A stretch of 64,000 nucleotides of DNA from Minisyncoccota bacterium (GTDB lineage Bacteria; Patescibacteriota; Minisyncoccia; Phycocordibacterales; UBA1550), in NCBI GenBank assembly GCA_041660105.1, contig JBAZWZ010000004.1, positions 176 through 64,175 on the forward strand, read 5' to 3'. The notes under the pieces are model-generated. The model did not search any database, was not told where the DNA came from, and saw nothing but the letters and a program-made list of their open reading frames with translations. The translations under genes and the position numbers were made by a program. Position 1 is the first letter of the stretch. The number at the start of each line of letters is the position of its first letter. This document shows, piece after piece, positions 7,204 to 36,700 of the stretch.

Positions 7204-8208
7204 ATGGATACCCAATTAGATTTCGTTGGCATTGGCGACACCGTCGTCGATGCATTTATTCGCCTCAAAGAAGATCACGCACATACCACCTGTCGCGTTG
7301 ACACAAATGCATGTGAACTCTGTATGCCATTTGGTGCAAAAGTTCCTTTTGATTTTGTGACGGTATGCTACGCAGTTGGCAACAGCGCCAACGCTTGCGT
7401 TTCTGCATCACGCCTTGGACTCAAGAGCGCGCTCATTTCCAACTTGGGGAATGACGACGATGGCAAGAAGTGTCTTACTTCCCTTACAAAAGATGGCGTC
7501 AGCACGCAGTACATCAAAGAATACGACGGTATCAAAACAAACTATCACTATGTACTCTGGTACGACAGTGAGCGTACCATCCTCATCAAGCACGAAGACT
7601 TCCCCTACACACTTCCCCTCGGCGATGTTGGTCCAAAGTGGCTCTACCTCTCGTCGCTCAACGAAAAGTCACTCGAGTTCCATCACGAGATTTCTCGCTA
7701 CCTTGCAGCACACCCAGAGACCAAACTCTCGTTTCAGCCAGGCGGTTTTCAGATAAAGCTCGGCGTCGAAGCTCTCAAGGATCTCTACGCACACACCGAA
7801 GTATTTTTCTGTAACGTAGAAGAGGCGCGTCAGATTCTCGAAGACAAAGAGTCAGAGCCAAAAGACCTTGCAAAGAAAGTTGCAGGTCTTGGTCCAAAGA
7901 TTGTCGTCATCACCGATGGACCAAAGGGTGCATACGTGTTTGATGGTGTAGACTCTTGGTTTATGCCTATCTACCCAGATCCAAAGCCACCATACGAGCG
8001 CACGGGCGCAGGCGACTCATTTGCATCAGCATTCGTCTCAGCCCTCGCTCTCGGCAAGACTCCGTCGGAGGCGATAGCCTGGGCACCCATCAACTCAATG
8101 TCCGTTGTACAGCAAGTAGGCGCACAAGCAGGCCTCCTCACCCGCGAACAGCTCGAGAAATATCTTGCAGAAGCACCCGCTGACTACAAGGCAGTGAAGC
8201 TAGACTAG
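7204..8208 (+). CDS. PfkB-family carbohydrate kinase (ribokinase/fructokinase superfamily)
   Basis: 334 aa; C-terminal TGAGDSFASAF anion-hole/catalytic motif typical of the PfkB family. Confidence 0.85.
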   Translation: MDTQLDFVGIGDTVVDAFIRLKEDHAHTTCRVDTNACELCMPFGAKVPFDFVTVCYAVGNSANACVSASRLGLKSALISNLGNDDDGKKCLTSLTKDGVSTQYIKEYDGIKTNYHYVLWYDSERTILIKHEDFPYTLPLGDVGPKWLYLSSLNEKSLEFHHEISRYLAAHPETKLSFQPGGFQIKLGVEALKDLYAHTEVFFCNVEEARQILEDKESEPKDLAKKVAGLGPKIVVITDGPKGAYVFDGVDSWFMPIYPDPKPPYERTGAGDSFASAFVSALALGKTPSEAIAWAPINSMSVVQQVGAQAGLLTREQLEKYLAEAPADYKAVKLD

Positions 8209-8220
8209 TGTTTATGTCCA

Positions 8221-8241
8221 AGACACGAATCAGCTGATTCG
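8221..8241. promoter_or_regulatory. Copy 1 of 21-nt motif AGACACGAATCAGCTGATTCG (contains perfect 14-bp palindrome GAATCAGCTGATTC)
   Basis: Identical to the 21-mer at 11947..11967. Lies just downstream of pfkB. Confidence 0.5.
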
Positions 8242-8276
8242 AAGTCTCAAGTCGAAAAGTCAAAAGTAGAGACAAG

Positions 8277-8311
8277 AAAACCCGCACCAATAATGGCTGC
8301 GGGTTTTTATT
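8277..8311. terminator. Bidirectional rho-independent terminator after pfkB
   Basis: AAAACCCGCA-CCAATAATGGC-TGCGGGTTTTTATT. Confidence 0.65.
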
Positions 8312-8395
8312 AAGGTTGAATTTCTTTTTCAAGAAACGCACAAAGAAACTCATAATGTTTTGAAACTTCATCTTGCGAACCCCAGAGACTCGTAG

Positions 8396-8674
8396 CTAAT
8401 TCTTGGCCTCTTTCAACAAGGACAGAAGTTCCTTTAGTTTTTTCAAATTTTTTACTGGTGTGATTGCCCGAAGAAAAAGGTTGTGTACTTCCGACTCCAG
8501 TTTGTTCAAGCGCATTTTTTTCGCATGAACTTCTGGGGCATGTTTTTGTTCAAACTCCCCAAGTAAGGTACGAAACTTCCCCGCAGTCATTCCCTCACTA
8601 GACATCTGTTCAAGAAGAATACGGAAATCAAAACGAATAGTTTCATTTTCATCAACAATCGTAGTTGCGTTCAT
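8396..8674 (-). CDS. Hypothetical protein
   Basis: 92-aa ORF with no recognisable motifs. Confidence 0.35.
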   Translation of the reverse strand: MNATTIVDENETIRFDFRILLEQMSSEGMTAGKFRTLLGEFEQKHAPEVHAKKMRLNKLESEVHNLFLRAITPVKNLKKLKELLSLLKEAKN

Positions 8675-8781
8675 TATTACTCCTTGTTTGAAAGTTGTAC
8701 GCTGTGCAGTAAATACTAATTAGTATTCGACTTCTAAAAATAAACTACCACGAAATTCATCCTTGTGTCAAATTCCCCTAC

Positions 8782-8821
8782 TATCTACTTATACAGTACT
8801 ATAGTACTGTATAAGTAGATA
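8782..8821. repeat. 40-bp perfect palindrome TATCTACTTATACAGTAC-TATA-GTACTGTATAAGTAGATA
   Basis: Read directly. Shares its outer ends (TATCTAC...GTAGATA) and TAC-TATA-GTA centre with the 52-bp palindrome at 15896..15947. Confidence 0.55.
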
Positions 8822-8844
8822 CCTGTAAAAACAATAACTATTAT

Positions 8845-9126
8845 CTATATTCTTCTTTTCGAAACAGAAATTAATTTAATAACCATACGACTAACAAAAC
8901 TCCAAAAGAATATATTGATTACGAAAGTTACCAATAGAAAATAGTTGTATTCTCCTCCTCCCCAAAACAAGTAGTAGCTAAATGGAAATCCTCTACAAAG
9001 AAGATCTCCTTCAACTGCTATACCAAAATATCCTGCTTTATTTACTGCATAGAAAAAACTAATTGCCGTAATAAGTACTCCACTGAGAAGCGAAACTTCT
9101 TGAACAATATTTCTTTTGTAATTCAC
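8845..9126 (-). CDS. Small membrane protein, unknown function
   Basis: 93 aa with two or three hydrophobic helices. Confidence 0.4.
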   Translation of the reverse strand: MNYKRNIVQEVSLLSGVLITAISFFYAVNKAGYFGIAVEGDLLCRGFPFSYYLFWGGGEYNYFLLVTFVINIFFWSFVSRMVIKLISVSKRRI

Positions 9127-9130
9127 TATA

Positions 9131-9382
9131 TTACTTCATCAGCACAGGGTGTAATATAGTTGTTCCCGCTTGATAGCTATCTCCAACCCAGGCTATCTGG
9201 GATATGTAGGGCCACAAAATTCCAAGAGCAATGGTTGCCAAGATTGCAGAACCAATAACTACTCCTAAACCATAAATAATCCCCGTATAAAAAATGTGTT
9301 TGAAACTAATCTGCTTCGCAATCTTTTCGTTCAAAGATACGAGCTGTAATAATATTTTATCTTCTTGTGGGTTTGGTTCCAT
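9131..9382 (-). CDS. Small membrane protein, unknown function
   Basis: 83 aa; hydrophobic helix pair GIIYGLGVVIGSAILATIALGILW. Confidence 0.4.
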   Translation of the reverse strand: MEPNPQEDKILLQLVSLNEKIAKQISFKHIFYTGIIYGLGVVIGSAILATIALGILWPYISQIAWVGDSYQAGTTILHPVLMK

Positions 9383-9384
9383 GT

Positions 9385-10356
9385 TTATATTAGCTTCTTA
9401 ATCGCTTCTTTAATATGACTAATCCCCATACCGTAGTGTTCGATGAGTTCAGTTGGTGTTCCTGACTGACCAAACTTATCATGCACACCGATGAACGCCA
9501 TCTTGGTTGGATGTTCTACGGCGAGCACCTCTGCGATAGCCGAGCCGAGGCCTCCTGCGACTTGATGTTCCTCTACGGAAACAATCGCTCCACATTCTTT
9601 TGCGAGCGCAATCACTGCATCACGGTCAAGTGGCTTGATGGTTGCCATGTTGAGCACCACAGTATTAATTCCTTCTTCTTGGAGCTGTTTCGCGGCCATG
9701 AGCGCATTGTAAACAAGCCCCCCACATGCGATGATACCAACTTTGGGACTCTCAGTACGGAAATATTCCTGCGCCTTCCCTATCTCAAATGGAGTGTCCT
9801 CATTCGTAACAATAGGTGTCTTCTCGCGAGCGAGACGGATATATGTTGGCTTTGTTGTCTTCGCCATTGCAAGTGTTGCCTTGCGTGCCTCGATACTATC
9901 ACAAGGACAGAGCACTACCATATTGGGAAGCACACGTGTGATAGCCATATCTTCGACTGCTTGATGAGTACCACCGTCAGGACCCACAGAGATACCTGCA
10001 TGTGAGCCCACAAGCTTCACAGGGCGATCGTTATAACAAATCGTAGTTCGAATCTGCTCCCAGCTTCTTCCAGGAGAAAACATTGCATACGAGGAAACAA
10101 ATGGAATCTTCCCCATCGCCGCCATACCTGACGCGACAGATACTGATGACTGTTCCATAATCCCCATTTCAAAAAATCGCTTTGGGAATTCTTTTGCAAA
10201 TGCATCCATTTTGGTCGACTCCGTGAGGTCGCAACACATAGCCACCACGCGCTCATCTGCGCGCCCCGCAAGCACGAGCCCTTCGCCAAAGCCCGCGCGA
10301 ATAGGCGCCTGCTCTACATCGGTATCAAAAAGTTTTGAATTAAGTGGAATGGTCAT
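9385..10356 (-). CDS. tkt: Transketolase, C-terminal (pyrimidine-binding + C-terminal domain) subunit
   Basis: Split-transketolase organisation. Start moved to the ATG at 10356 (the track start at 10374 is GTG). Confidence 0.9.
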   Translation of the reverse strand: MTIPLNSKLFDTDVEQAPIRAGFGEGLVLAGRADERVVAMCCDLTESTKMDAFAKEFPKRFFEMGIMEQSSVSVASGMAAMGKIPFVSSYAMFSPGRSWEQIRTTICYNDRPVKLVGSHAGISVGPDGGTHQAVEDMAITRVLPNMVVLCPCDSIEARKATLAMAKTTKPTYIRLAREKTPIVTNEDTPFEIGKAQEYFRTESPKVGIIACGGLVYNALMAAKQLQEEGINTVVLNMATIKPLDRDAVIALAKECGAIVSVEEHQVAGGLGSAIAEVLAVEHPTKMAFIGVHDKFGQSGTPTELIEHYGMGISHIKEAIKKLI

Positions 10357-10360
10357 GATT

Positions 10361-11230
10361 TTATTGATGTTCACTTTCTATCTGTCCCCCGAGTGTACGA
10401 AGTTCTGCGAGAGCATTCGCTCCTTGTTCCTTATTGGGTGGATTGCCGTGCCACTTGGGATCATTCTGAAACATATCTACACCTTTACCAGGAATAGTAT
10501 GTGCAATGATTACCGATGGCTTTTCAAACACGGCACGAGCTGTATCTACAGCGTTGATAATCTCAGACATATTGTGCCCATTGATCTCAAGCACATGCCA
10601 ACCAAACGAAGCCCACTTCATTGCGATAGGCTCAAGTGGCATCACGTTTTCGGTGTAGCCATCGATTTGAATATTATTGCGGTCAACGATAGCGACAAGG
10701 TTGTGGAGCTTCTCCTTCCCTGCGAGCATGATCGCTTCCCAGTTTTGCCCCTCATTGAGTTCACCATCTCCCACAAAACAATAGACAGTTCTGTTGGTGT
10801 TTTGTCCACGATCAAGGCGGTCCACAAGTGCCATTCCCACTGCCTGCGAAAGTCCTGAACCAAGAGGTCCAGAGCTCGTCTCGAGCATAGGGAGAAACTC
10901 ACGGTGTGGATGTCCTTGGAGACGTGAACCAAACTTACGAAGTGTTTTGAGTTCTTCAATGGGGAAATATCCTGCATGCGCCATCGTCGCGTAGAGTACG
11001 GGGCAGATGTGACCATTTGAGAGCACTACACGGTCGCGCTCTTCCCATGTGGGGTTCTTTGGATCCTGTTTTAAAATATGAAAATAGAATGCCGTAAAAA
11101 TATCCGTCATACCGAGAGGCCCCGCAGTGTGCCCCGACTTCGCTTCAACGAGCATCTCAATAATCGACTTGCGAATCTCAAGTGCTTTTTCTTCAAGAAA
11201 CTTTGTTTTATCGTCGTGTTGGCAGTTCAT
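10361..11230 (-). CDS. tkt: Transketolase, N-terminal (TPP-binding) subunit
   Basis: GHxxGPLGM and GDG...NEG TPP-binding motifs. Start moved to MNCQHDDKTKF (ATG 11230), immediately after the rpe stop. Confidence 0.9.
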   Translation of the reverse strand: MNCQHDDKTKFLEEKALEIRKSIIEMLVEAKSGHTAGPLGMTDIFTAFYFHILKQDPKNPTWEERDRVVLSNGHICPVLYATMAHAGYFPIEELKTLRKFGSRLQGHPHREFLPMLETSSGPLGSGLSQAVGMALVDRLDRGQNTNRTVYCFVGDGELNEGQNWEAIMLAGKEKLHNLVAIVDRNNIQIDGYTENVMPLEPIAMKWASFGWHVLEINGHNMSEIINAVDTARAVFEKPSVIIAHTIPGKGVDMFQNDPKWHGNPPNKEQGANALAELRTLGGQIESEHQ

Positions 11231-11234
11231 AGGA

Positions 11235-11906
11235 TTATTGTACCAGATTCTCAAAGCGAGTAATAGCGCCGACGAAGTCATCTGCTTCAAGAATAGCAGA
11301 GCCAGACACAAGACGCGTTGCCCCCGCATCTACGAGGGCGCGCGCAGTGTCGAAGTTTACCGAGCCATCGATACTAATAGGCATCTCGGGCTTCAGCGCG
11401 CGGATAGCGCGCACATTCTCAAGTACACGTTCATCAAAAGGCTCCCCTTGGAAACCAATACGCGCAATACCCATACACTGCACGAAGTCGATACGGTCGA
11501 GATATGGCTCAATAGCAGAAAGTGGTGTAGCGGTATTGATAGCAAGTCCAAGCTCAATCAAGCCCTCGGGCACCCCGGCGCGAATAGCCTCAAAGCCCTT
11601 CATGGACTCCACGTGCACGATAATACGGCTCGCCCCTGCAGTCACCCATTTTGAGACCCAGAGCTCAGGATTTTCTATCATAAGGTCTGCTTCAAAATTA
11701 ATACTCTCCCACGATGGCATCCCCTCTTCTTCGGTCATCATCGCATCAAAATGTGGGTCCCGCGGATATGGCCATGTGCGCGCTGGCACAAATTTGCCAT
11801 CCATAATATCGAGCTGAACGAGTGGTACAACATTCACAAAAAGGCTCATCATCTCATCGAGGTGGTCATAGTCACGTGGCATTATTGCGGGAATAATTTC
11901 AATCAT
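11235..11906 (-). CDS. rpe: Ribulose-phosphate 3-epimerase
   Basis: LDIMDGKFVP (DxMDGxFVP) and the C-terminal ISIDGSVN motif. Start ATG at 11906 (the alternative ATG at 11927 is also possible). Confidence 0.85.
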   Translation of the reverse strand: MIEIIPAIMPRDYDHLDEMMSLFVNVVPLVQLDIMDGKFVPARTWPYPRDPHFDAMMTEEEGMPSWESINFEADLMIENPELWVSKWVTAGASRIIVHVESMKGFEAIRAGVPEGLIELGLAINTATPLSAIEPYLDRIDFVQCMGIARIGFQGEPFDERVLENVRAIRALKPEMPISIDGSVNFDTARALVDAGATRLVSGSAILEADDFVGAITRFENLVQ

Positions 11907-11946
11907 ATTATTTTGCTTCGCAAACATTTAACAATATTTATGCCCC

Positions 11947-11967
11947 AGACACGAATCAGCTGATTCG
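11947..11967. promoter_or_regulatory. Copy 2 of 21-nt motif AGACACGAATCAGCTGATTCG, ~20-40 nt upstream of rpe
   Basis: Identical 21-mer to 8221..8241. Sits in the rpiB-rpe intergenic region. Confidence 0.5.
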
Positions 11968-12030
11968 CATGTGACATTTAACTCATTCGTAATTTGTATC
12001 CGTCAATTGTCCGCGAAGCGGTATCAATTG

Positions 12031-12471
12031 TCAAATGTCTAATTTTTTAATCCTTCGCGCATGTTTTTCTTCGTTTGAGAAAGGAGTTTCGAGCCACACA
12101 CGCACTACTTCCTTCGCCTCATCAGCTTCCACAAAGCGCGCACCAAAGGAAATAATATTCGCGTTATTGTGCTCTCGAGAAAGGACAGCAATATCTACAG
12201 GCCCACCATAGTAGACCGCAGCGCGCACACCATTCACACGGTTCGCACACATCGCCTCGCCTTGCCCAGAACCACCAAGAATAACTCCACGCGACTCTGA
12301 GTCCTTCGCGACCGCTTCTGCGACAGGACGAATGAAGTCAGGATAATCATCGAGTACCTCAAATGTATGCGCTCCCATATCCTCAACGTCGTGCCCGAGC
12401 TCGCGCAAAAAAGTCACAAGGACTTCCTTGAGCTCAAATCCTGCGTGATCCGTTCCAATAAATATTTTCAT
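12031..12471 (-). CDS. rpiB: Ribose-5-phosphate isomerase B
   Basis: MKIFIGTDHAGFELK...GGSGQGEAMCANR, the canonical RpiB/LacAB fold motifs. Confidence 0.9.
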   Translation of the reverse strand: MKIFIGTDHAGFELKEVLVTFLRELGHDVEDMGAHTFEVLDDYPDFIRPVAEAVAKDSESRGVILGGSGQGEAMCANRVNGVRAAVYYGGPVDIAVLSREHNNANIISFGARFVEADEAKEVVRVWLETPFSNEEKHARRIKKLDI

Positions 12472-12479
12472 TTTTTTAA

Positions 12480-13529
12480 TTACTCCAAGTGGCTCGCAAC
12501 TTTCGCTACGTGCTTTACGAGTGTGTTGGTGTATCCCATTTCATTGTCGTACCACGAGAGCACCTTCACGAGATTACCATCTGCAACACGGGTCATTTCA
12601 AGGTCAGCGATAGCACCATAGAGCTCGCCCACAATATCCGAAGACACAATAGGCTCCTCACTCACTGTGAAGACTCCTTCCCAACGTGGATCCTTTGCAG
12701 CGTCGCGAAGTATCTGATTCACTTCTTCCGCTGAAGTGTTACGACTTGCGATAAATGTAATGTCTGCGATTGAGCCTGCGATAACCGGCACACGAATAGC
12801 AATACCATCAAACTTCCCAATGAGATCTGGCACCGCCTCAGTCACCGCAATAGCTGCCCCCGTTGAACCAGGAATCATATTCTGCGCAGCAGCTCGTCCA
12901 CCACGCAGGTCCTTTCCCCCAGGACCATCAACAATCTTCTGCGTTCCTGTGTATGCGTGCGTGGTGTTGAGGAGTGCCTTCTCAATACCAATAGCCTCGT
13001 GGAGGATATGGATGAGTGGTGATGCAGCGTTGGTTGTACACGAAGCATTTGACGAAATGTCACATGTTGCGAGCTTCTCTTCGTTGATACCCATAAGCAC
13101 GGTCACACCAGTGATACCTGGCACAACTGCTTCGCCCTTCACCGGAGCGGTGATGACTACACGCTTTGCCCCTGCATCGAGATGAACTTTTGATTTCTCA
13201 TAGCTCGTAAAGAAACCGGTCGACTCCACCACGATATCAATATTGTACTTTGCCCAAGGGAGCTTGGTTGCATCTTTTTCTTGAATAAGGAGAACTTTAT
13301 GTCCACCAACAATAAATCCAGGCTCCTCACTTTCTGCAGGAGGAACTACGGTCACTTCGAAATCAGCCTTGCCGTACGCAGTGTCGTATTTGAGGAGATA
13401 TGCCATGTTCTCAGGGTCACCGAGGTCATTCACTGCCACAATCTCAAACTCAGGACGTGTGCGTGCCAACTTATAAAATGCGCGTCCAATGCGCCCAAAC
13501 CCGTTAATAGCTACTCGTACTTTTCTCAT
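12480..13529 (-). CDS. gap: Glyceraldehyde-3-phosphate dehydrogenase
   Basis: INGFGRIGR NAD-binding motif; ASCTTN catalytic cysteine motif; 349 aa. Confidence 0.95.
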   Translation of the reverse strand: MRKVRVAINGFGRIGRAFYKLARTRPEFEIVAVNDLGDPENMAYLLKYDTAYGKADFEVTVVPPAESEEPGFIVGGHKVLLIQEKDATKLPWAKYNIDIVVESTGFFTSYEKSKVHLDAGAKRVVITAPVKGEAVVPGITGVTVLMGINEEKLATCDISSNASCTTNAASPLIHILHEAIGIEKALLNTTHAYTGTQKIVDGPGGKDLRGGRAAAQNMIPGSTGAAIAVTEAVPDLIGKFDGIAIRVPVIAGSIADITFIASRNTSAEEVNQILRDAAKDPRWEGVFTVSEEPIVSSDIVGELYGAIADLEMTRVADGNLVKVLSWYDNEMGYTNTLVKHVAKVASHLE

Positions 13530-13562
13530 GGTTGATTTTGTTGATTTACTTATCGAGCTACC

Positions 13563-13638
13563 GCGAAATTTAGAAAATCAACACCCCGTTAAATGATTTC
13601 TGAAAGAAATCCCTGCTTTGCAGGATTTAACTGGGGTA
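13563..13638 (-). repeat. Copy A of ~75-nt conserved leader element (nested hairpins) 35-110 nt upstream of gap
   Basis: Near-identical to 17021..17096. Contains the P1 inverted repeat CCCCAGTTAAAT/ATTTAACGGGG and an inner CCTGCAAAGCAGG hairpin. Confidence 0.45.
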
Positions 13639-13855
13639 GACAACCAAACTTCGCTACGCTCGTTATTTTATTAAAACTATCTCATTATTTTAACATATGC
13701 AGTTTGAGTTGCGAAACCCACTTTTCCGTCTTTGCGAGTACTCGAAGCAATCCAGAGCTCACCGCAGAAAATCCTGGATTGCCGCGCTTCGCTCGCAATG
13801 ACAATACATTGCGTTGTTTTTAGTCATCTATAAAAATAGTACACAGTTTTGTATG

Positions 13856-14080
13856 CTATTTTGCCTTCTTTTTTATTTGACTAACGCTCACAGAATGAAC
13901 CGCTCGTTTCAAAAACGGTGTCGGGGCTATCGTCGAAAATGAGATAGATTTATTTCTCACTAAATCTTTAAGTAGCGCATTTATAATAGCCGACAATGTA
14001 AACCCAAGCTCGTCAGCTACCTTCTGCGCCTCATTCTTAACCTTTGGATCTATTTTGATGTTTAGTACTGCTGTTTTCAT
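13856..14080 (-). CDS. RelB/DinJ-family ribbon-helix-helix antitoxin-like protein (no cognate toxin adjacent)
   Basis: 74 aa. An N-terminal beta-strand (VLNIKIDPKVKNEAQKVADELG) followed by two helices fits RelB/DinJ antitoxins. Confidence 0.55.
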   Translation of the reverse strand: MKTAVLNIKIDPKVKNEAQKVADELGFTLSAIINALLKDLVRNKSISFSTIAPTPFLKRAVHSVSVSQIKKKAK

Positions 14081-14127
14081 ATATATGACAAAGTATATAC
14101 TTTGTCATTATTACTGTCAATCAAAAA

Positions 14128-14415
14128 TTAGTCCTTGCAATACGATACCACTGTTGAGCCTAGTGATACATGACACTGAATATTTTGTGGGTTACTCTCA
14201 TCACAAAGCCAGTTCCCTCTTTCAACTTCATTTTGACAGATTCGCATATTCTGAAATTTAGCTGAAACAAAGCAGCCAGAATAAGCTGAGTCACATATTA
14301 TATATTTCACTGGGAATCTAAACTTTTCAATAAAAATCAAAGTGGTTAGTGTAAGAAAAACTACAATAAGTATTATTATCTTATATCTCTCTATAGATGC
14401 CATAATTGTTTTCAT
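14128..14415 (-). CDS. Small N-terminally anchored Cys-rich protein, unknown
   Basis: 95 aa; TM helix IIILIVVFLTLTTLIFI; six Cys in the C-terminal half. Confidence 0.35.
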   Translation of the reverse strand: MKTIMASIERYKIIILIVVFLTLTTLIFIEKFRFPVKYIICDSAYSGCFVSAKFQNMRICQNEVERGNWLCDESNPQNIQCHVSLGSTVVSYCKD

Positions 14416-14433
14416 ATGTTTTTAATTATACGC

Positions 14434-15861
14434 TTACTTCAGCGCTTCTCCAAAAAGCGCTTTGAGTGCTTCAGGGTTTGCAGAACCCTTGCTGGCTTTC
14501 ATTCCTTGCCCTACGAAGAACTGAATGAGGGCGACTTTGCCTGCTTTATAATCCTTAACGACATTTGGATTTGCAGAGAGAATTTCTGCGACTATTTTCT
14601 CAAGTGCTCCGTTATCATTATTTTGGATATATTTTTTTGCCACCTCTACTAAATCACCTCCTTGTGTAAAAATCTCACACAAAGAATCCTTTGCTCCACG
14701 AGACGAGAGTTCGCTAGCCATTATTCTAGTTACTAGCGCCATCATTCCCTCAGGGGTAATATTATTAAATCCATCGAGGCCATATTTTGCAACTAGACCA
14801 GCAATGTCGGAACAAATATAGTTTGCCAAAAGTCGAACTGCTTCTCCGTCTTTACTATGTGTAACCTCAAATTCATCCAGTTTGATAGTTTTATCAAAAA
14901 GTTCACCGTATCGCTTGTCGGCGACCAGTATCCCCACTTGTTCTGGGGCAATTCTAAAAGATAGGAGACGCTCACGCTTCTCCCAAGGGAGTTCGGGCAT
15001 TGTCGCCTTGAGTGCCTCATTTGAAAATTCAGGAATTTCTGAAATCTTGAGCTTTGGTAAATCTGGATCAGGGAAATAGCGGTAGTCGTGTGCTGACTCC
15101 TTCTTGCGCTGTGAATATGTCGCTTGCTTACCTTCATCCCATCCACGCGTCTCTTGCACTATCTCACCAGGGCCACCGTCGAGGATCGCTGTCATGCGTG
15201 CAACCTCGTACGCAATAGCACGCTCCACTGAACGGAACGAGTTCAAGTTTTTCACTTCCACTTTCGTACCGAGTTTATCTGTCTTTGATATTGAAATATT
15301 TGCCTCCACACGCATCTCTCCTTTCTCCATGTTTGCATCTGACACACCGAGTGTGCGGAGGAGGAGCTGGAGCTCACGAGCAAATGCGCCCGCCTCCTCT
15401 GCAGTGTGAATCACGGGCTTAGTCACGAGCTCCATGAGAGGCACGCCCGCGCGGTTGTAGTCAACGAGACTTGCGCTTCCTCCTTCGTGTGATGAGCTCG
15501 CAGTATCTTCCTCGAGATGCACACGCTCAATAGCGACGCCGTGGAGCTGTCCGTTTGATACAAGCGGATATTTGTACTGACTGATTTGATAGCCCTTCGG
15601 AATATCAGGATAGAAATAGTTCTTACGGTCAAACTCCGTGAAGTCTGCGAGGTCCGAGCCGAGCGCTGTCCCCACACGGAGTACGTGATGCACCGCCTGC
15701 TTGTTGATCACCGGCAAAGTCCCCGGGTGCGCCATGCAGACAGGGCAAATATTCACATTCGGCTCAGAATTGAACGGGTCGTTCGCCGAATTGCAGAACA
15801 TCTTTGTTTTTGTCTTGAGCTCAGCGTGAACCTCGAGCCCTACCGTAAGTTTGTAACTCAT
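14434..15861 (-). CDS. gatB: Asp-tRNA(Asn)/Glu-tRNA(Gln) amidotransferase subunit B
   Basis: 475 aa; VGLEVHAEL N-terminus; C-terminal YqeY-like tail. Confidence 0.95.
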   Translation of the reverse strand: MSYKLTVGLEVHAELKTKTKMFCNSANDPFNSEPNVNICPVCMAHPGTLPVINKQAVHHVLRVGTALGSDLADFTEFDRKNYFYPDIPKGYQISQYKYPLVSNGQLHGVAIERVHLEEDTASSSHEGGSASLVDYNRAGVPLMELVTKPVIHTAEEAGAFARELQLLLRTLGVSDANMEKGEMRVEANISISKTDKLGTKVEVKNLNSFRSVERAIAYEVARMTAILDGGPGEIVQETRGWDEGKQATYSQRKKESAHDYRYFPDPDLPKLKISEIPEFSNEALKATMPELPWEKRERLLSFRIAPEQVGILVADKRYGELFDKTIKLDEFEVTHSKDGEAVRLLANYICSDIAGLVAKYGLDGFNNITPEGMMALVTRIMASELSSRGAKDSLCEIFTQGGDLVEVAKKYIQNNDNGALEKIVAEILSANPNVVKDYKAGKVALIQFFVGQGMKASKGSANPEALKALFGEALK

Positions 15862-15895
15862 AAATGAGATTGTAGCATAAATATCCTCAAAGAAT

Positions 15896-15947
15896 AGCCA
15901 CTATCTACCTATTTTATACTATAGTATAAAATAGGTAGATAGTGGCT
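15896..15947. repeat. 52-bp perfect palindrome (24-bp arms AGCCACTATCTACCTATTTTATAC around TATA) ~35 nt upstream of gatB
   Basis: Read directly. Related to the 8782..8821 palindrome. Confidence 0.6.
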
Positions 15948-15956
15948 ATAACTAAC

Positions 15957-16007
15957 ACAAAGGGCCGCAAAAGAGCCGCAAACGCCAAGCGTTTGCGGCC
16001 CTTTGTT
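15957..16007 (-). terminator. Hairpin terminator downstream of obg (imperfect, with a duplicated GCCGCAAA segment)
   Basis: GGGCCGCAAACGC-CAAG-CGTTTGCGGCCC core followed by a T-rich tract. Confidence 0.5.
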
Positions 16008-19045: not shown

Positions 19046-20020
19046 TTAAGCAACCGCATTCGGCGCCGTGCGACCACTCAGCACCTCGATAATATTTGTC
19101 GCGACCAGCTCCGCCATCTTTGCGCGTGTCTCCTCGGTTGCAGATGCAATGTGTGGGGTCACCACCACATTAGGAAGAGTGAGGAGCTCGGGGGTGACCT
19201 TTGGCTCAAACTCAAACACATCGAGCGCTGCACCACGAATTGTCCCCGCTTTCAGTGCCTCTACAAGAGCAAGCTCGTCGACGATTGGTCCACGTGATGT
19301 ATTAATAAGCACAGCGCTCTTTTTCATCAATGCGAGACGCTCTGCATTTATGAGGTGGCGCGTTGTCGGGAGAAGTGGCACATGGATACTTACGACATCT
19401 GCTTGCGCAAGAACTTCTTCGGGTGTCTGATAAAAAGTAGCAGTACAAGCGCAATTAAACGCTTCGCTTGGTTTTAAATCTGTATAAACAACTTTCATTC
19501 CAAAACCTTTTTGCAAAATCCCCGCGACCTCAGACCCAATACGTCCTGCACCAATAAGTCCGAGTGTCTTCCCTTTTATATCAGTACCGAGAAGGAGCAT
19601 TGGCTCCCACGCAACAAATTTCCCTTCACGAATATATCGATCCCCTTCGGCAATGCGCGAAGAAAGCGCAAGGATGAGCGCCACCGTATGCTCAGCGACC
19701 GTCGAAGTGAGCACCTCGGGGGTGTTCGTCACTACGATTCCTCGTGCGTGCGCAGCCGTGACATCAATATTGTTATACCCCACCGCATAGTTTGCAATTA
19801 TTTTCACTGATGCGGGCATTACGGCAATCATTTCCGCATCCATGACATCCGTAAGGAGCGACACGACAGCATCATACTGCCCCGCGATGAGCGCAGCCTT
19901 GAGCTCATCGCGGGTGAGCACTCCGACCTTCTCACTCACGGTCACTTCATACCCAGCCTCGCGAAGCATTTCCTCAGCTCGCGACGGAATACGTCTCGTT
20001 ATGAATATTTTTTGTGTCAT
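19046..20020 (-). CDS. D-isomer-specific 2-hydroxyacid dehydrogenase (glyoxylate/hydroxypyruvate reductase-like)
   Basis: GxGxIG NAD-binding motif (GLIGAGRIGSEVAG) and the catalytic R/E/H arrangement. Start moved to MTQKIFITRR. Confidence 0.85.
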   Translation of the reverse strand: MTQKIFITRRIPSRAEEMLREAGYEVTVSEKVGVLTRDELKAALIAGQYDAVVSLLTDVMDAEMIAVMPASVKIIANYAVGYNNIDVTAAHARGIVVTNTPEVLTSTVAEHTVALILALSSRIAEGDRYIREGKFVAWEPMLLLGTDIKGKTLGLIGAGRIGSEVAGILQKGFGMKVVYTDLKPSEAFNCACTATFYQTPEEVLAQADVVSIHVPLLPTTRHLINAERLALMKKSAVLINTSRGPIVDELALVEALKAGTIRGAALDVFEFEPKVTPELLTLPNVVVTPHIASATEETRAKMAELVATNIIEVLSGRTAPNAVA

Positions 20021-20085
20021 ATACTCATTATTGTACCACGTAGATGCAGTGCACAATACTATTGCTGAAGTAGCAAAAATCTGTT

Positions 20086-21372
20086 ATGGTGCAAATATCA
20101 ACCACTCGTCGTCCGCGAGCCTTTTCAATTATGGTCGAAATATTTTTCAATAGTATCCTCTATGTATTTCTATTTTTCACCCTTTATCTCGAGGTGTTTT
20201 TTCTCATCACTTTTTTTGAAGAACGTCAAAAGCTAGGCATTAAAAAGCTCAAGGAGAAACTTTCACACTACCCCACAGTGACCATCATTGTCCCTTGTTG
20301 GAACGAAGAAACAACGGTCATCAAAACGGTTGAGTCTCTGCTTGGTCTCAACTACCCAAAGGACAAACTTGAGATTTCTGTCATTGATGATGGCTCAACT
20401 GATAACACTTGGAATGTTGTCCAGAAATTCAAAACTCATCCCCAAGTAAAACTATTCCATAAAGAAAACGGGGGTAAGCACACGGCAGTCAACTACGGCA
20501 TCGAGAATTCGCACGCAGAGCTGATCGGCTGTCTCGATGCTGACTCATTTGTAGACAAGGATGCACTTCACGAGATAGCTGCGGCTTTCAATGAAGATCC
20601 AAAAATGATGGCGGCGACTCCGATGCTCGTCGTACACGAGCCGAAAACAGTTCTCCAGAAAATGCAGAAGACAGAGTATCACGCTGGCGCATTTTTGAAA
20701 CGAATGCTCTCGCCTCTTGACGCCATCAATGTGACCCCCGGACCGTTTTCGATCTTTCGACGTGAAGTGTTTGAAAAAATAGGTCTTTACAAGAAAGCAC
20801 ACAACACAGAAGATATGGAGTTTGCGCTTCGTATGCAGGTCAATCATATGCGCATTCGCAACGTCCACACTGCACAAGTACACACAAAGACTCCTGACAC
20901 GCTCTACAAGCTCTACCGCCAGAGACTCCGCTGGGCGTATGGGATTATGAAGAACACACTCGACTATCGTTTCATGATGTTTCGGCGTGAATACGGCATC
21001 TTGGGGATGATCACACTTCCACTTTCCTTTTTTGGTGTTTTTATCTTCCTTTACAATTTCGGATTTCTTACGTTCCATATACTGAATGTAGTTATTGATA
21101 AAGCAATACAAATCAGTACTGTTGGTTTTGTGAACGCGCTCCCACACGCTGACTCATTCTTTTTCAATACTGACCTTATGACTATTCTTTCCTACGTTTT
21201 TATCGGGATGTCACTTGTTATTGTTTGGAATGGGGTAAAACTCGCCGAGGGCCGTTTTCGTCTAACTCCGGGTGTCTTTTATTTCATTTTCCTTTATGGT
21301 ATTGTTGCACCAATCTGGCTTATCCGCGCAGTACTCAACATAGTATTTTCCCGCACTACAAGTTGGCGTTAA
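20086..21372 (+). CDS. Processive family-2 glycosyltransferase (cellulose/chitin/NodC-like synthase) with N- and C-terminal TM segments
   Basis: GT-A domain TIIVPCWNEE...DDGSTDNT, DAD, and the QRLRW (QxxRW) motif of processive beta-glycan synthases, followed by several TM helices. Confidence 0.8.
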   Translation: MVQISTTRRPRAFSIMVEIFFNSILYVFLFFTLYLEVFFLITFFEERQKLGIKKLKEKLSHYPTVTIIVPCWNEETTVIKTVESLLGLNYPKDKLEISVIDDGSTDNTWNVVQKFKTHPQVKLFHKENGGKHTAVNYGIENSHAELIGCLDADSFVDKDALHEIAAAFNEDPKMMAATPMLVVHEPKTVLQKMQKTEYHAGAFLKRMLSPLDAINVTPGPFSIFRREVFEKIGLYKKAHNTEDMEFALRMQVNHMRIRNVHTAQVHTKTPDTLYKLYRQRLRWAYGIMKNTLDYRFMMFRREYGILGMITLPLSFFGVFIFLYNFGFLTFHILNVVIDKAIQISTVGFVNALPHADSFFFNTDLMTILSYVFIGMSLVIVWNGVKLAEGRFRLTPGVFYFIFLYGIVAPIWLIRAVLNIVFSRTTSWR

Positions 21373-33797: not shown

Positions 33798-36700
33798 TTA
33801 TTCTCCAAACCTCACCTCTACCACATCCGTCTGAGTTATACCATTCACTGTCGTGGTAATAATGATATTTTCTTGAGCTGCTGTAGTGCCTTGTGGGAAG
33901 AACAACGAGAACTTCGTCTGCTTGCGGTCGTCACCATCACTATGCTCTTCCTCCTGAACCACATTGAGCATGGTGAAGTTTCCAGAGATATTGGTGGTAA
34001 ACGGTACATCCTTCTTGATTCCTGTGACTTTTACCGTAAGTTCTAGTGGTTGTCCTTTCTTGAGTTTCAAGACATCATCTGACTTAAGGAGGAGTGTAGT
34101 ACTGTGAGCGGTATCTTTATACTTGTACTGGAGTTGGGCAGTTTGTTGCTTGTCGTAGATATTAACCGTACTCGTTTGAGACGTTGTTTTATTGGCAACA
34201 GTATTAGTGATACTAAGCGTGATTTCGGCGTTTGCAAACTTGAGTTCTTTTTCAAGTTCGTTTCTTCTCTCGTTGTCTGACTCGTGGTCTCTTTTGTGTT
34301 TAATTGATTCTCTTTCCTTAGTGTTACCTTTTGTAGTAGTAAGGGTAAGAGTATATGTCTTAAGTTCTTTTGTGCTTTGTGGGAAGGAGATAGTAATCAC
34401 ACCGTTTGTGGTAGCAACCGTTGCTGGGACAGTAGCCTCATTACTATCTTTTACTGGAGAATTTCCTACGCGATAGTAAGTGTTGGAAAGATTTAAGGAA
34501 ACATTTCCTCTTCCAGCAACTGAGAATGGCAGATTAAATGAATCCTTTTCCCAGAGTGAATACTCGTCAGGAATAGTGAGATTTGCGAAGACAGTGGTAT
34601 CAAATGGCTTCACATCATCTTGATTTGGGACACCGTCTCCGTCGGGATCTGCCGTGGGACTCGAGTAGACAGTTACCGCAATACTTGAGGTTGCGATGTT
34701 ACCAGCCATATCATGCGCAGTTATCAATATGTTTGTAACCCCTGGGGCAAATGTTTGTGTTAGTGGTTTGTCTGTAGTGAATGTAGAATTAGGATCAATA
34801 CTATCATTAACAGTTACGGGAATAGTTAGAAGTGTACCACTCGAAGTAAGTTGCTCAACAGAGGTATCAGACGCAAAGATAGTTGGAGCGGTAGTATCGA
34901 TTTTGAAATCAAGTGTACTTGTTGCTTCTGTGTTCCCAAAGTAGTCGACTGAGTAATACTTGAGGGTACTAGTACCTTCGGTTGCAATGACGAGCGGGGT
35001 TGAAGTGCTGTAGGTGTTCCATGTAACTCCGTTATCAAGAGAGTACATTGTTTTTTCTACACCTACGCCGTCAATATTATCTACAGCGGTAAGAGCTACT
35101 GATGTTGGACTTGTGTACCAATAATCCACACCTAATGAACCCGAAATAACTGAGGTGGTCATTGGTGCAACTGTATCAGAGAAATTATTACCAACCTGAA
35201 TAGTTTGTTCAGGTGTGCCATCTCCATTTTCATCAACTAACACGGTTACTCCACGCTCTCCCCTTGAGAGCGCATCAGAGTCAACCTTGTAAGTATAGAT
35301 TTCTCCCAATTTAAGTGGGATATTTATTGCTGAAAAAATATTTGATACTGCTCCGTCAACATAAAACGAATACAGCCCTTCCTCAGTTCCTGATACCTTA
35401 TAAGACTCAGTTCCATTCGGGAAGTAAACTTCTGCTTGTTTTCCACTCTTCTGGTCGTAGTATACATTCGGTACATCGTTTTTTACTCCTGTAGTGTTTA
35501 GTCCAGAAGACCTCCCCTCTGAATCAACTATTTCAAGGGTACCTGGACTACAAATAGAAATTGTTTCTTTTTCCTGTGATGCTAGTTTTAATTTTTCTAT
35601 AAAATTATCAGGATTACTATAAGTATCAGAATTAGGGAAAATCGTCTTTATTGTTTCTAGTTTATTTGCAACCTGAGCGAGATAATAAGGCTGAGATTGA
35701 TTATTTAATCTGCGACAAACCTTGTTGCCATTTTCATCATAATACGGATCAGGCCCGAACCCATTGTATCCTCTAACCCCTAAGATTTGCTCCATTTCCG
35801 GTTTTGTAATCTTATAAGTTATGTTGTTTTCATCCAATTTGCCAGTCCAAGTTTCATTTTGTGCAACGTAAGGATTATTATAATAAATATTAAATTTGTC
35901 TCTCAAAACCTTCATACCATCTTTTACGTTAGAAAATATAGACTGTTTTGTATTTGTGTAAAACTTATACAAATATCCATCAGAAGCAGTTTTGTAGGAG
36001 TGAGGAATATTCTTATCTGAATCAGTATAACAGTCTAGATAATTTAAATTATCTAGAGAACATGCAGGCACATCAATACCGCTAGCCACTCCTCGCTTAT
36101 CATAGTCATTCTCTGGTTGTGCGGGGTAATGAGTAGTGGTAACTTGACTAATACCATGACCGAAATCCCTCGCTACATTTTCGTTATCAAAGTCAACAAT
36201 ATCAGACTCATTAGCAAAAATTGCTAAAATGAGCTGTTTTGGGAAATCAGCCAACCGCAAAAGAGAAATATTGTTTGCCCCCTCTTTCCCGAGATTATCA
36301 CTGCTACTAAGAGAAGGGGTTGCGCTTGCGTTTATATAATAATGGTTAACGGCATCAGAAATAAGGTTTGCTCGATCTTCCTTTGTCCCATAAATTTGTG
36401 ATGCTGTATTCTCTAATTCCGTCTGCATACTTGCCTCATACTTCAAATACTCCTGCCCATCGATAAAGTTTCCTGTTGCATTATCAATAACCCCAGCCTT
36501 CATCCAGCCTGTTGTGCCATCGGTCGCATCTCGAACTTGATACCATCGATATGCGATTCCGCCCTCTATAGTTTCAGCATTACTTCCATCTTTCTTTGTG
36601 CTCTTAACCTCAACCGCCCATCCACTAGGAAGCTGCTTTAATTCTGTCGAGGTCGTGTTTGGCAACTCATACATCTTCATAGCTCCCGATTCATTTGAGA

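Follow-up and report, generated by a model that had tools for sequence, protein, structure and literature searches.

A family of long CTATAG-centred palindromes in Patescibacteria and the PaaX-like protein encoded between its members

We analysed two long perfect palindromes, P1 and P2, in a 64,000-nucleotide stretch of DNA (hereafter, the window) from a Minisyncoccota bacterium and found that they belong to a family of CTATAG-centred palindromes that adjoin promoter-like elements and, in related genomes, bracket genes for a small protein with a PaaX-like fold, with different paralogs of this protein accompanied by different palindrome types. Given that the palindromes bracket the gene of this PaaX/Cas2-like protein, they are most likely its binding sites, and the sequence comparisons lead us, with moderate confidence, to regard P1 and P2 as operators for a PaaX-like dimer that stand as solo copies. 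Among the three options raised in the original prediction, namely, operators for a dimeric regulator, REP/BIME-like elements, and processing or termination hairpins, the first is the best supported. No account of these palindromes turned up in the literature searched, and the family, which belongs to tiny-genome groundwater Patescibacteria, has apparently gone undescribed until now.

Architecture and surroundings of P1 and P2

P1 is, as originally predicted, a 40-bp perfect palindrome between two small minus-strand genes (ORFs 8396-8674 and 8845-9126). P2 is indeed a perfect palindrome near gatB, but it extends over 56 bp (15894-15949) rather than the 52 bp (15896-15947) first described, and contains a canonical 40-bp core at 15902-15941. 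The two have the same layout with identical spacing, TATCTAC (7), 8 variable positions, TACTATAGTA (10), 8 variable positions and GTAGATA (7), in agreement with the earlier description of common termini and centre with differing inner arms; the CTATCTAC ends that were also described occur at either side of P2 and at a single side of P1. The relevant features of the window are as follows.

P1, 8782..8821, no strand: canonical type, TATCTAC TTATACAG TACTATAGTA CTGTATAA GTAGATA; solo copy in a variable intergenic region
P2, 15894..15949, no strand: core variable positions 12-15 are TTTA; 8-bp palindromic extensions ATAGCCAC / GTGGCTAT
gatB, 14434..15861, minus strand: gene downstream of P2, 77-79% identical to Yonathbacteria GatB
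Candidate extended -10 promoter of gatB, 15869..15877, minus strand: TGCTACAAT, read from the sequence, 7 nt before the ATG
Terminator hairpin of obg, 15957..16006, minus strand: GC-rich, separate from P2 and 8 nt away from it
92-aa ORF, 8396..8674, minus strand: downstream of P1, AAGGAG 5 nt before the ATG
Candidate promoter downstream of P1, 8742..8771, minus strand: TTGACA (8771-8766), 18-nt spacer, TGg-TAGTTT (8750-8742), read by eye
Second promoter candidate at P1, 8829-8801: TTTACA-17-TACTAT, with the palindrome centre serving as -10

Palindromes of this length are rare by chance, as had been supposed: the longest perfect arms are 20 nt (P1) and 28 nt (P2), compared with 10 nt in 50 shuffles of the window, and the probability of a perfect 20-nt arm at any one centre is 4^-20. 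The full pattern, allowing up to 3 mismatches, matched twice in the window (0.00 expected); P1 and P2 are its only two copies there, with no degenerate ones detected. Strong hairpins are predicted for the two palindromes, at -25.1 and -15.4 kcal/mol (computed as DNA), with z-scores of -11.7 and -8.4. A 24-bp palindrome at 36034-36057, inside a 1268-aa ORF, is unrelated to P1 and P2.

P2 ends 32 nt from the gatB start codon (15861, minus strand), and its core ends 27 nt upstream of the gatB TACAAT hexamer, the position of which, 7 nt from the ATG, suggests a leaderless-type start. The arrangement of TGCTACAAT, 8 nt and ATG is kept in a relative (L129) that has no palindrome. At P1, the candidate -10 hexamer starts 34 nt after the core, with 33 nt between them; the 92-aa ORF that follows has no match to known families. 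The palindrome centre, which reads TATAGT on either strand and at P1 forms part of TTTACA-17-TACTAT, might itself act as a sigma-70 -10 element; no -35 element consistent across the sites was found. The likeness of ACTATAG to the T7 promoter core was rejected, as its upstream part is out of register and no phage-type polymerase context was present in the regions examined.

A reading of the palindromes as intrinsic terminators was also rejected. P1 has no T-tract, and no terminator was found there, whereas P2 passed a loose scan only through its AT-rich 20-pair stem and adjoins a proper terminator; with obg already provided with this separate GC-rich hairpin, the predicted termination function is unlikely. 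The RelB-like protein (13856-14080), previously proposed as a binder, is an unlikely one because it has its own, different palindrome, an unrelated 24-bp sequence (14085-14108) inside its own promoter (TTGACA-17-TATACT).

A palindrome family of Patescibacteria

Scans of public genomes and metagenomes yielded 27 distinct copies of the canonical core, all from Patescibacteria (Yonathbacteria/Paceibacterota), confirming that the family has members beyond the window; the exact 40-mer of P1 recurs in two metagenome loci (L076 and L093). The window itself appears Yonathbacteria-like. In the genome scan, palindromic core matches came only from patescibacterial MAGs, whereas the 27 non-palindromic hits were due to chance. 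Exact cores number 1-5 per MAG, and 2 per 64 kb in the window. All 18 hits in viral contigs were non-palindromic chance matches, and no relatives of the PaaX-like protein described below were found in viral contigs, so a viral origin or a role as protelomerase sites was rejected. The protelomerase site telRL of phage N15 is a 56-bp perfect palindrome, and the palindromes described here resemble such sites in their long perfect symmetry, size and alternating-sequence centre, but they are chromosome-internal, occur in several copies between housekeeping genes, and have no associated protelomerase.

About 30 primary-sequence positions of the palindromes are conserved across genera, and the variable positions and flanks covary between the two arms (p <= 1e-4), which genome-specific preferences could explain in part. 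Palindromic flank extensions differ in length among sites, and many functional-looking sites have asymmetric arms (L025, L045, L054, L074). The motif contains ~64 bit of information, which cannot come from point mutation, so that the sites must be copied in; no consistent direct repeats indicative of target-site duplication were found at the 27 sites.

The sites are intergenic, and for 22 of the 27 an ORF of at least 80 aa begins with an ATG at a distance of 24-123 nt, on one side or both. Most of these genes come with a TGnTAnAAT-like element of their own, 6-14 nt ahead of the ATG and at a variable distance (27-79 nt) from the site. Core genes with promoter-adjacent sites include gatB, ArgRS, IleRS, peptide deformylase, MurJ and pilus genes, with no obvious common function. 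Several targets recur with diverged flanks, namely, the M3 oligopeptidase (L025, L074), MurJ (L044, L117), an MFS transporter (L030, L054, L090) and a divergent 211-216-aa gene (L030, L054). In contrast, three syntenic relatives sharing the obg...gatB...tkt...pfkB order have no palindrome at the positions of P1 and of P2 at gatB, and both window sites lie in regions whose gene content differs between relatives. The defined regulon considered in the original prediction is thus only weakly apparent, from the recurrence of some targets across genomes but not from the window's own two positions.

A PaaX-like protein between copies of its own palindrome

In three loci (L030, L048, L054), a gene for a 182-aa protein with a PaaX_M domain (PF20803, E 1.6e-19) lies between paired sites 660-690 bp apart. 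The same layout recurs in L035, L070, L076 and L090; L077 and L104 show it too, with divergent palindromes. Loci fetched by protein similarity only contained six PaaX-like genes (two each in L120 and L126, one each in L123 and L132), every one with its own palindrome type on both sides (12/12 flanks); CTATAG forms the centre of five of these six types. Genomes encode several such paralogs, each with a private 40-70-bp palindrome, and differences between paralogs in the recognition-helix region go along with differences in the palindrome arms. The PaaX-like gene of the relatives has a site 28-34 nt ahead of its ATG, which probably overlaps the promoter and gives autorepression. In L126, the bracket copies have an asymmetric centre and stand in inverted orientation to one another, which suits recognition of duplex DNA rather than of one transcript. 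The downstream copy can also lie in a convergent gap, facing no promoter (L076, L132). Synteny of the PaaX-like gene with ArgRS, MFS transporter and pilus genes is stable across genera; the window itself gave no match to the family by tblastn or the family HMM.

The protein consists of an N-terminal winged helix and a Cas2-like PaaX_M domain, the latter scoring 70.2 bits with PF20803 against a gathering threshold of 24. For its AF2 model (pLDDT 83.7), the best PDB match in Foldseek is E. coli PaaX (8A39, E 5e-5, both domains), followed by winged-helix regulators and Cas2. With only the winged helix and PaaX_M present, the PaaX equivalog model TIGR02277 gives 23-43 bits, below its cut-off of 264.55. 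The C-terminal domain scores right at the threshold of the Cas2 model (24-26 bits vs 24.5), and its invariant Asp110, in the motif MFD(I/V)PE, is aligned with the catalytic residue of Cas2, the strand-1 Asp, in the Cas2-like PDB chain 3exc. No HUH, transposase or recombinase domain was found in the protein. The family comprises 272 clusters (50% identity) at E <= 1e-30 and 2491 at E <= 1e-10 and, as far as sampled, is specific to Patescibacteria. The Cas2-like domain with its invariant Asp and the tie to palindromic repeats are reminiscent of Cas2 and the partly palindromic repeats of CRISPR systems, but no Cas1 domain was detected among the called genes of the protein-fetched loci, there are no arrays or spacers, and the repeats occur singly on either side of a gene, 600-700 bp from each other.

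The closest parallel to an operator system is E. coli PaaX itself (operators Pa, Pz, Px and Ppga), which shares the winged helix, the Cas2-like middle domain and a site at the regulator's own gene, seen here in the relatives. Its operator, TGATTC(N27)GAATCA (PMC9493321), consists of 6-bp inverted repeats ~3 turns apart, and the corresponding geometry, ATCTAC-N26-GTAGAT, is present in P1, P2 and 25 other sites. Unlike in E. coli, the protein described here lacks the C-terminal domain of PaaX, to which binding of the inducer phenylacetyl-CoA has been assigned (PMC9493321), no paa genes are nearby, the spacer is conserved and palindromic, sites are present on both sides of the gene, and many paralogs per genome each have their own site type.

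Operators and alternative readings

As operators, the palindromes would be contacted by the two winged helices of the dimer at the outer half-sites ATCTAC and GTAGAT, which are 32 bp apart centre to centre, or ~3 helical turns, and would thus face one side of the helix. Between them, the 26-bp spacer has TATA steps at core positions 9-12, 19-22 and 29-32, exactly one per helical turn, and may allow the DNA to bend toward the protein. At the PaaX-like gene, binding would lead to autorepression, as with PaaX at Px. Solo sites, such as those at gatB and the 92-aa ORF, end 27-37 nt upstream of the putative -10, which places the proximal half-site near -45 to -50, from where the dimer might activate initiation or, as an upstream repressor or roadblock, hinder it. 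The perfect symmetry would probably come from templated correction of quasi-palindromes or whole-site copying rather than from binding needs.

Several observations fit the operator reading poorly. A perfect palindrome of 40-70 bp is much longer and more symmetric than an operator requires, arm covariation is not predicted if a dimer selects half-sites independently, the sites are all-or-none, with the P1 and gatB positions empty in the three syntenic relatives, some bracket copies face no promoter, the cognate gene is absent from the window, the distance to the -10 is not fixed, and the targets have no obvious common function. The excess symmetry, covarying arms, empty positions in relatives and promoterless brackets keep alive a different reading, which we consider unlikely, that the palindromes are semi-selfish hairpin or cruciform repeats akin to REP/REPIN-RAYT, copied by or with the bracketed Cas2-domain protein, such that each paralog maintains its own repeat population and promoter effects are secondary. 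REPs have a conserved GTAG/CTAC head, similar to the half-site ATCTAC/GTAGAT, and are likewise extragenic palindromes dispersed as solo copies, with an associated gene between inverted copies of its own repeat type and one repeat family per paralog. The inverted bracketing where the centre is asymmetric, the paralog-specific types, flank extensions of varying length, occurrence of sites as near-perfect or absent, bracket copies in convergent gaps, the lineage-specific gain of the window sites, and the Cas2-threshold domain with its invariant Asp110 all agree with such repeats. However, exact cores are few (1-5 per MAG), compared with tens to hundreds of copies per genome for REPs, and the palindromes are perfect, AT-rich and CTATAG-centred; the protein, although bracketed like a RAYT, is not an HUH/Y1 transposase; target-site duplications, the classical hallmark of transposons and MITEs, are absent; the synteny of the gene is stable; sites adjoin promoters and are kept upstream of orthologous genes despite diverged flanks; and viral-contig relatives were not found. 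The REP/BIME-like option of the original prediction is matched in several features, less so in the apparently low number of copies, and not in the type of protein. A stronger version, which we regard as less likely still, is that a Cas2-domain family in CPR bacteria keeps its own set of CTATAG-centred perfect palindromes, which it may also copy or cut, in a REPIN/RAYT-like partnership built on a winged-helix and Cas2 scaffold instead of HUH, with the private repeats co-opted at housekeeping promoters.

It is quite improbable that the palindromes act at the RNA level, as transcribed hairpins with a UAUA loop that serve for RNase III processing, as stabilisers or as roadblocks between co-directional genes, and that the Cas2-like protein might bind. 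The strong predicted hairpins, the location of 27 of 39 CTATAG-centred palindromes between co-directional genes and the arm covariation, a prediction of hairpin selection, would be accounted for, but a stem alone has no need of the ~30 conserved positions, arms are asymmetric at many functional-looking sites, inverted bracket copies would form different loops on one transcript, and some sites lie between divergent genes. Moreover, P2 follows a proper terminator and precedes gatB's own promoter, so that it may not be transcribed, and Rfam 15 gave no match at the gathering score in the whole window. Still more doubtful, to the point of being highly improbable, is site-specific recombination, in which an inverted pair would define an invertible or excisable segment, like hix around hin, with the solo copies as scars or secondary sites at hot spots of gene-content change. 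Arms around a short central region do resemble recombinase core sites, bracket copies are inverted, and the window sites lie where gene content differs between relatives; against this, no recombinase gene is linked to the sites, the symmetric centre confers no directionality, and the gene was not observed in both orientations at any locus.

CPR bacteria, which cannot be grown on their own, possess very few transcription factors, and, to our knowledge, almost nothing is known of their gene regulation. The operator reading now proposes a concrete protein-DNA pair for these bacteria. If the sites are operators, they would constitute a set of orthogonal repressor/operator pairs, maybe among the main regulatory systems of these organisms; if, instead, the Cas2-like protein copies the palindromes, this would be a new repeat-protein partnership that bears on the association of Cas2 with repeats.

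Two long palindromes and their family in Patescibacteria

The two long perfect palindromes of the window, P1 and P2, follow one layout with the same spacing, namely TATCTAC, 8 variable bases, TACTATAGTA, 8 variable bases and GTAGATA. The common termini and centre and the differing inner arms of the original prediction hold, with the differences falling in the variable 8-base stretches. The 40-bp perfect palindrome was confirmed, and the one upstream of gatB is likewise perfect but, at 56 bp, four bases longer than the 52 bp first reported.

8782-8821: P1, perfect 40-bp palindrome between two small minus-strand ORFs
15894-15949: P2, perfect 56-bp palindrome, 32 nt upstream of the gatB start

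Allowing up to three mismatches, the pattern occurs at two places in the window (P1 and P2) against 0.00 expected, and the longest perfect arm in shuffled window sequence is 10 nt, compared with 20 and 28 nt observed; the pattern scan found no degenerate copies or half-sites in the window. A 24-bp perfect palindrome at 36034-36057, TCTAGATAATTTAAATTATCTAGA, within a 1268-aa ORF (33798-37604, minus strand), is unrelated to the family.

We scanned three public collections: viral contigs, one genome per species, and metagenomes. In viral contigs, the half pattern gave non-palindromic chance matches only, and protelomerase sites were rejected on this ground. The one-genome-per-species scan returned 38 matches, comprising 27 on a single strand, non-palindromic and scattered over taxa, and 11 palindromic ones, all in four Patescibacteria MAGs (Paceibacterota, Yonathbacteria, and one labelled 'Saccharibacteria'). 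After the metagenome scan, with a looser two-sided pattern, there were 27 distinct canonical sites, that is, sites with the 40-bp core type of P1 and P2, confirming that the pair belongs to a family with further members. The consensus is (ccc)AC|TATCTAC-Y-TATA-SNR-TACTATAGTA-YNS-TATA-R-GTAGATA|GT(ggg), from which P2 departs at variable positions and position 12 only. The window GatB is 77-79% identical to Yonathbacteria GatB, which argues that the window comes from a Yonathbacteria relative.

Other palindromes occur at the loci fetched from relatives and metagenomes (L-numbers). A second abundant type has ATACCACGCTATAGCGTGGTAT inner arms and variable outer arms, reaching 76 bp, and at L093 has a canonical site about 20 bp away. 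Further long perfect palindromes, of 46-56 bp, are centred not on CTATAG but on ATATAT, ATGCAT or TCATGA, indicating additional classes of long intergenic palindromes in these genomes.

L075 8868-8943; L093 1435-1496; L066 4778-4819: second type, ATACCACGCTATAGCGTGGTAT inner arms
L048 481-536, identical to L123 15538-15593; L063 3085-3140; L081 10808-10853: centres other than CTATAG

A PaaX-like gene bracketed by palindromes

At three loci (L030, L048, L054), two sites 660-690 bp apart enclose a conserved 182-aa gene, the product of which has a Pfam match (E 1.6e-19) to PaaX_M, PaaX's 'central Cas2-like domain'. In its AlphaFold model (pLDDT 83.7) a winged helix precedes a ferredoxin-like domain, and the PDB entry that best matches this predicted model across both domains is 8A39, E. 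coli PaaX (E 5e-5); Rv0674, Cas2 proteins and winged-helix regulators come next. Assignment as a PaaX ortholog was rejected: the protein reaches 23-43 bits where the cut-off is 264.55, and it lacks the C-terminal domain. The score against the Cas2 model is near threshold (24-26 bits vs 24.5). An invariant Asp in the MFD(I/V)PE motif of the Cas2-like domain aligns with the strand-1 Asp of the Cas2-like PDB chain 3exc, the residue that is the catalytic Asp in Cas2.

The family comprises 272 clusters at E <= 1e-30 and 2491 at E <= 1e-10 (50% identity clusters), and the source names of homologs, where given, are all Patescibacteria lineages. Genomes encode several paralogs; none was found in the window. 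The presumed recognition helix differs among paralogs while the Cas2-like domain is nearly invariant, paralleling the paralog-specific arms around a common (TA)CTATAG(TA) centre.

Six PaaX-like genes were fetched by protein identity alone, without selection for palindromes. All six are bracketed, with the gene's own palindrome type on 12 of 12 flanks.

L123: canonical-type gene, canonical sites on both flanks
L120, gene 10001-10552: bracket sites GACTATGTATACNNTACTATAGTA...
L120, gene 19811-20365: bracket sites TCCAATNTGGTACTATAGTACC...
L132, gene 10001-10576: bracket sites ACTATCACATCTTTGGTACTATAGTACC...
L126, gene 10001-10546: bracket arms CTATACACGTATTT, asymmetric 12-nt centre
L126, gene 19127-19708: bracket sites GCAAATTCTCGC-TATC/GATA-GCGAGAATTTGC

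In L126, the two copies flanking each gene are mutually inverted. Two distant homologs, one in L077 and one in L104 (24-31% identity), likewise lie directly behind palindromes with the skeleton ATCTAC...CTATAG...GTAGAT and different arms. The flanks of the fetched loci hold more CTATAG-centred perfect palindromes, 38-76 bp long with unrelated arms, one of which (L123 1038-1099) resembles P2. Upstream of an ArgRS-linked paralog, a palindrome of its own type (L035, ~640-762) is apparently split at the centre, with about 76 nt of unrelated sequence between CTATAGACGTATACGATACTATA and TAGTATATTATACGTCTATAG.

Placement relative to genes and promoters

Canonical sites are intergenic, and for 22 of the 27 the ATG of an ORF with 80 aa or more lies at a distance of 24-123 nt to one side or both; CTATAG-centred palindromes lie mostly between co-directional genes (27 of 39), with 4 in divergent and 3 in convergent settings. 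Most genes downstream have an extended -10-like element of their own (TGnTAnAAT), placed 6-14 nt ahead of the ATG, a proximity that suggests leaderless-type starts. The core ends 27-79 nt upstream of this element, about half of the values being 27-37 nt; the distance is 27 nt for P2 and would be 33 nt for P1 if a candidate promoter identified by eye (TTGACA-18-TGgTAGTTT) is real. The regulator's own gene has its site 28-34 nt from the ATG.

15862-15877 region: gatB extended -10-like element, TGCTACAAT + 7 nt + ATG, also kept in the relative L129, which has no palindrome there

Targets recurring across genomes with diverged flanks are genes for M3 oligopeptidase, MurJ, an MFS transporter and a 211-216-aa protein; others are ArgRS, peptide deformylase, an FtsA-like gene, a nucleotidyltransferase and gatB.

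Many genes (gatB; L025, L045, L074, L093 and others) lack a Shine-Dalgarno sequence and have TGnTAnAAT within 6-14 nt of the ATG, suggesting that leaderless mRNAs may be widespread in the Paceibacteria lineage concerned; AAGGAG takes the place of this layout at the 92-aa ORF (8396-8674). Relative to L129-L131, the tktC-pfkB (8138-9382) and gap-gatB (13593-14415) intervals contain different small accessory ORFs in each relative, as does the obg-gatB interval, including HicA, RelB-like, Gp49/HTH pairs and genes of no known kind. These intervals look like hot spots of gene-content change, and both P1 and P2 lie in or beside them. Transketolase is encoded by separate N- and C-terminal genes, as in relatives; the longest-ORF calls of tktN and tktC overlap, as do those of rpe and tktN (10361-10374 and 11235-11329), and translation therefore probably begins further downstream than called.

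Operator reading and its rivals

The published PaaX operator, TGATTC(N27)GAATCA (PMC9493321), has the same geometry as the family's ATCTAC(N26)GTAGAT. Half-site centres are 32 bp apart, about three turns. Each turn of the spacer contains exactly one TATA (core positions 9-12, 19-22 and 29-32), and in divergent types phased A/T tracts take its place (e.g., A6...T6 in L104). The spacer may thus be bendable and let a dimer contact both half-sites. Four observations agree with a set of autoregulated local regulators that have a few extra targets: the gene is linked to its sites, every paralog comes with a site type of its own, orthologous genes repeatedly have sites upstream, and bracket copies are inverted. 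Among the options offered for P1 and P2, an operator for a dimeric regulator is best supported, but the proposed binder, the RelB-like protein, is probably wrong; the likely partner is a PaaX-like winged-helix and Cas2-domain protein encoded elsewhere in the genome. The RelB-like gene has a palindrome that is probably the antitoxin's own operator, overlapping the spacer and -10 of a textbook minus-strand promoter (TTGACA-17-TATACT); no obvious RelE-like toxin ORF adjoins the gene in the window.

14085-14108: 24-bp perfect palindrome ATGACAAAGTATATACTTTGTCAT, 4 nt upstream of the RelB-like gene (13856-14080)

Transcribed palindromes could act as RNA hairpins serving as RNase III sites or stabilisers, but this is disfavoured by strong primary-sequence conservation, tolerance of arm asymmetry at several sites, the lack of an Rfam match, and the inverted bracket copies, which point to recognition of duplex DNA rather than transcript. 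In addition, P2 sits between a terminator and a promoter, directly after the GC-rich obg terminator (15957-16006); terminators were rejected, as were T7-like promoters. Against recombination or inversion sites stands the absence of a linked recombinase.

Several features sit uneasily with a plain operator. Symmetry includes positions at which the sites differ from one another: within a site, the two arms agree at 105 of 130 variable core positions (77.6 expected) and 98 of 156 flank positions (66.9 expected; both p <= 1e-4), where the expectation derives from arms of different sites and genome-specific preferences may account for part of the excess. Palindromic extensions of 0-8 nt, unrelated in sequence, surround the core. 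Sites are all-or-none, near-perfect or absent, and the P1 and P2 positions are empty in three syntenic relatives. Point mutation cannot build a motif of ~64 bits, so each site must be copied whole; no target-site duplications were seen at the sites. At two loci, L076 and L132, the gene facing the downstream bracket copy is convergent, so the bracket goes with the regulator gene rather than with a promoter further along. The invariant Asp of the Cas2-like domain is a further feature that a plain operator does not account for.

Quasi-palindromes are known to be corrected from a template during replication, a mutational process by which long palindromes could become perfect and longer without having any function; it leaves the arrival of new sites unexplained. 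For this reason we keep a REP/RAYT-like reading of the palindrome-protein pairing, which we consider unlikely given the low copy number (1-5 exact-core copies per MAG), stable synteny and a protein without any transposase domain. We found no description of the pairing in the literature and class it as a putative PaaX-family regulator and its operator in variant form. Its unusual features may yet set it apart as a more novel system.
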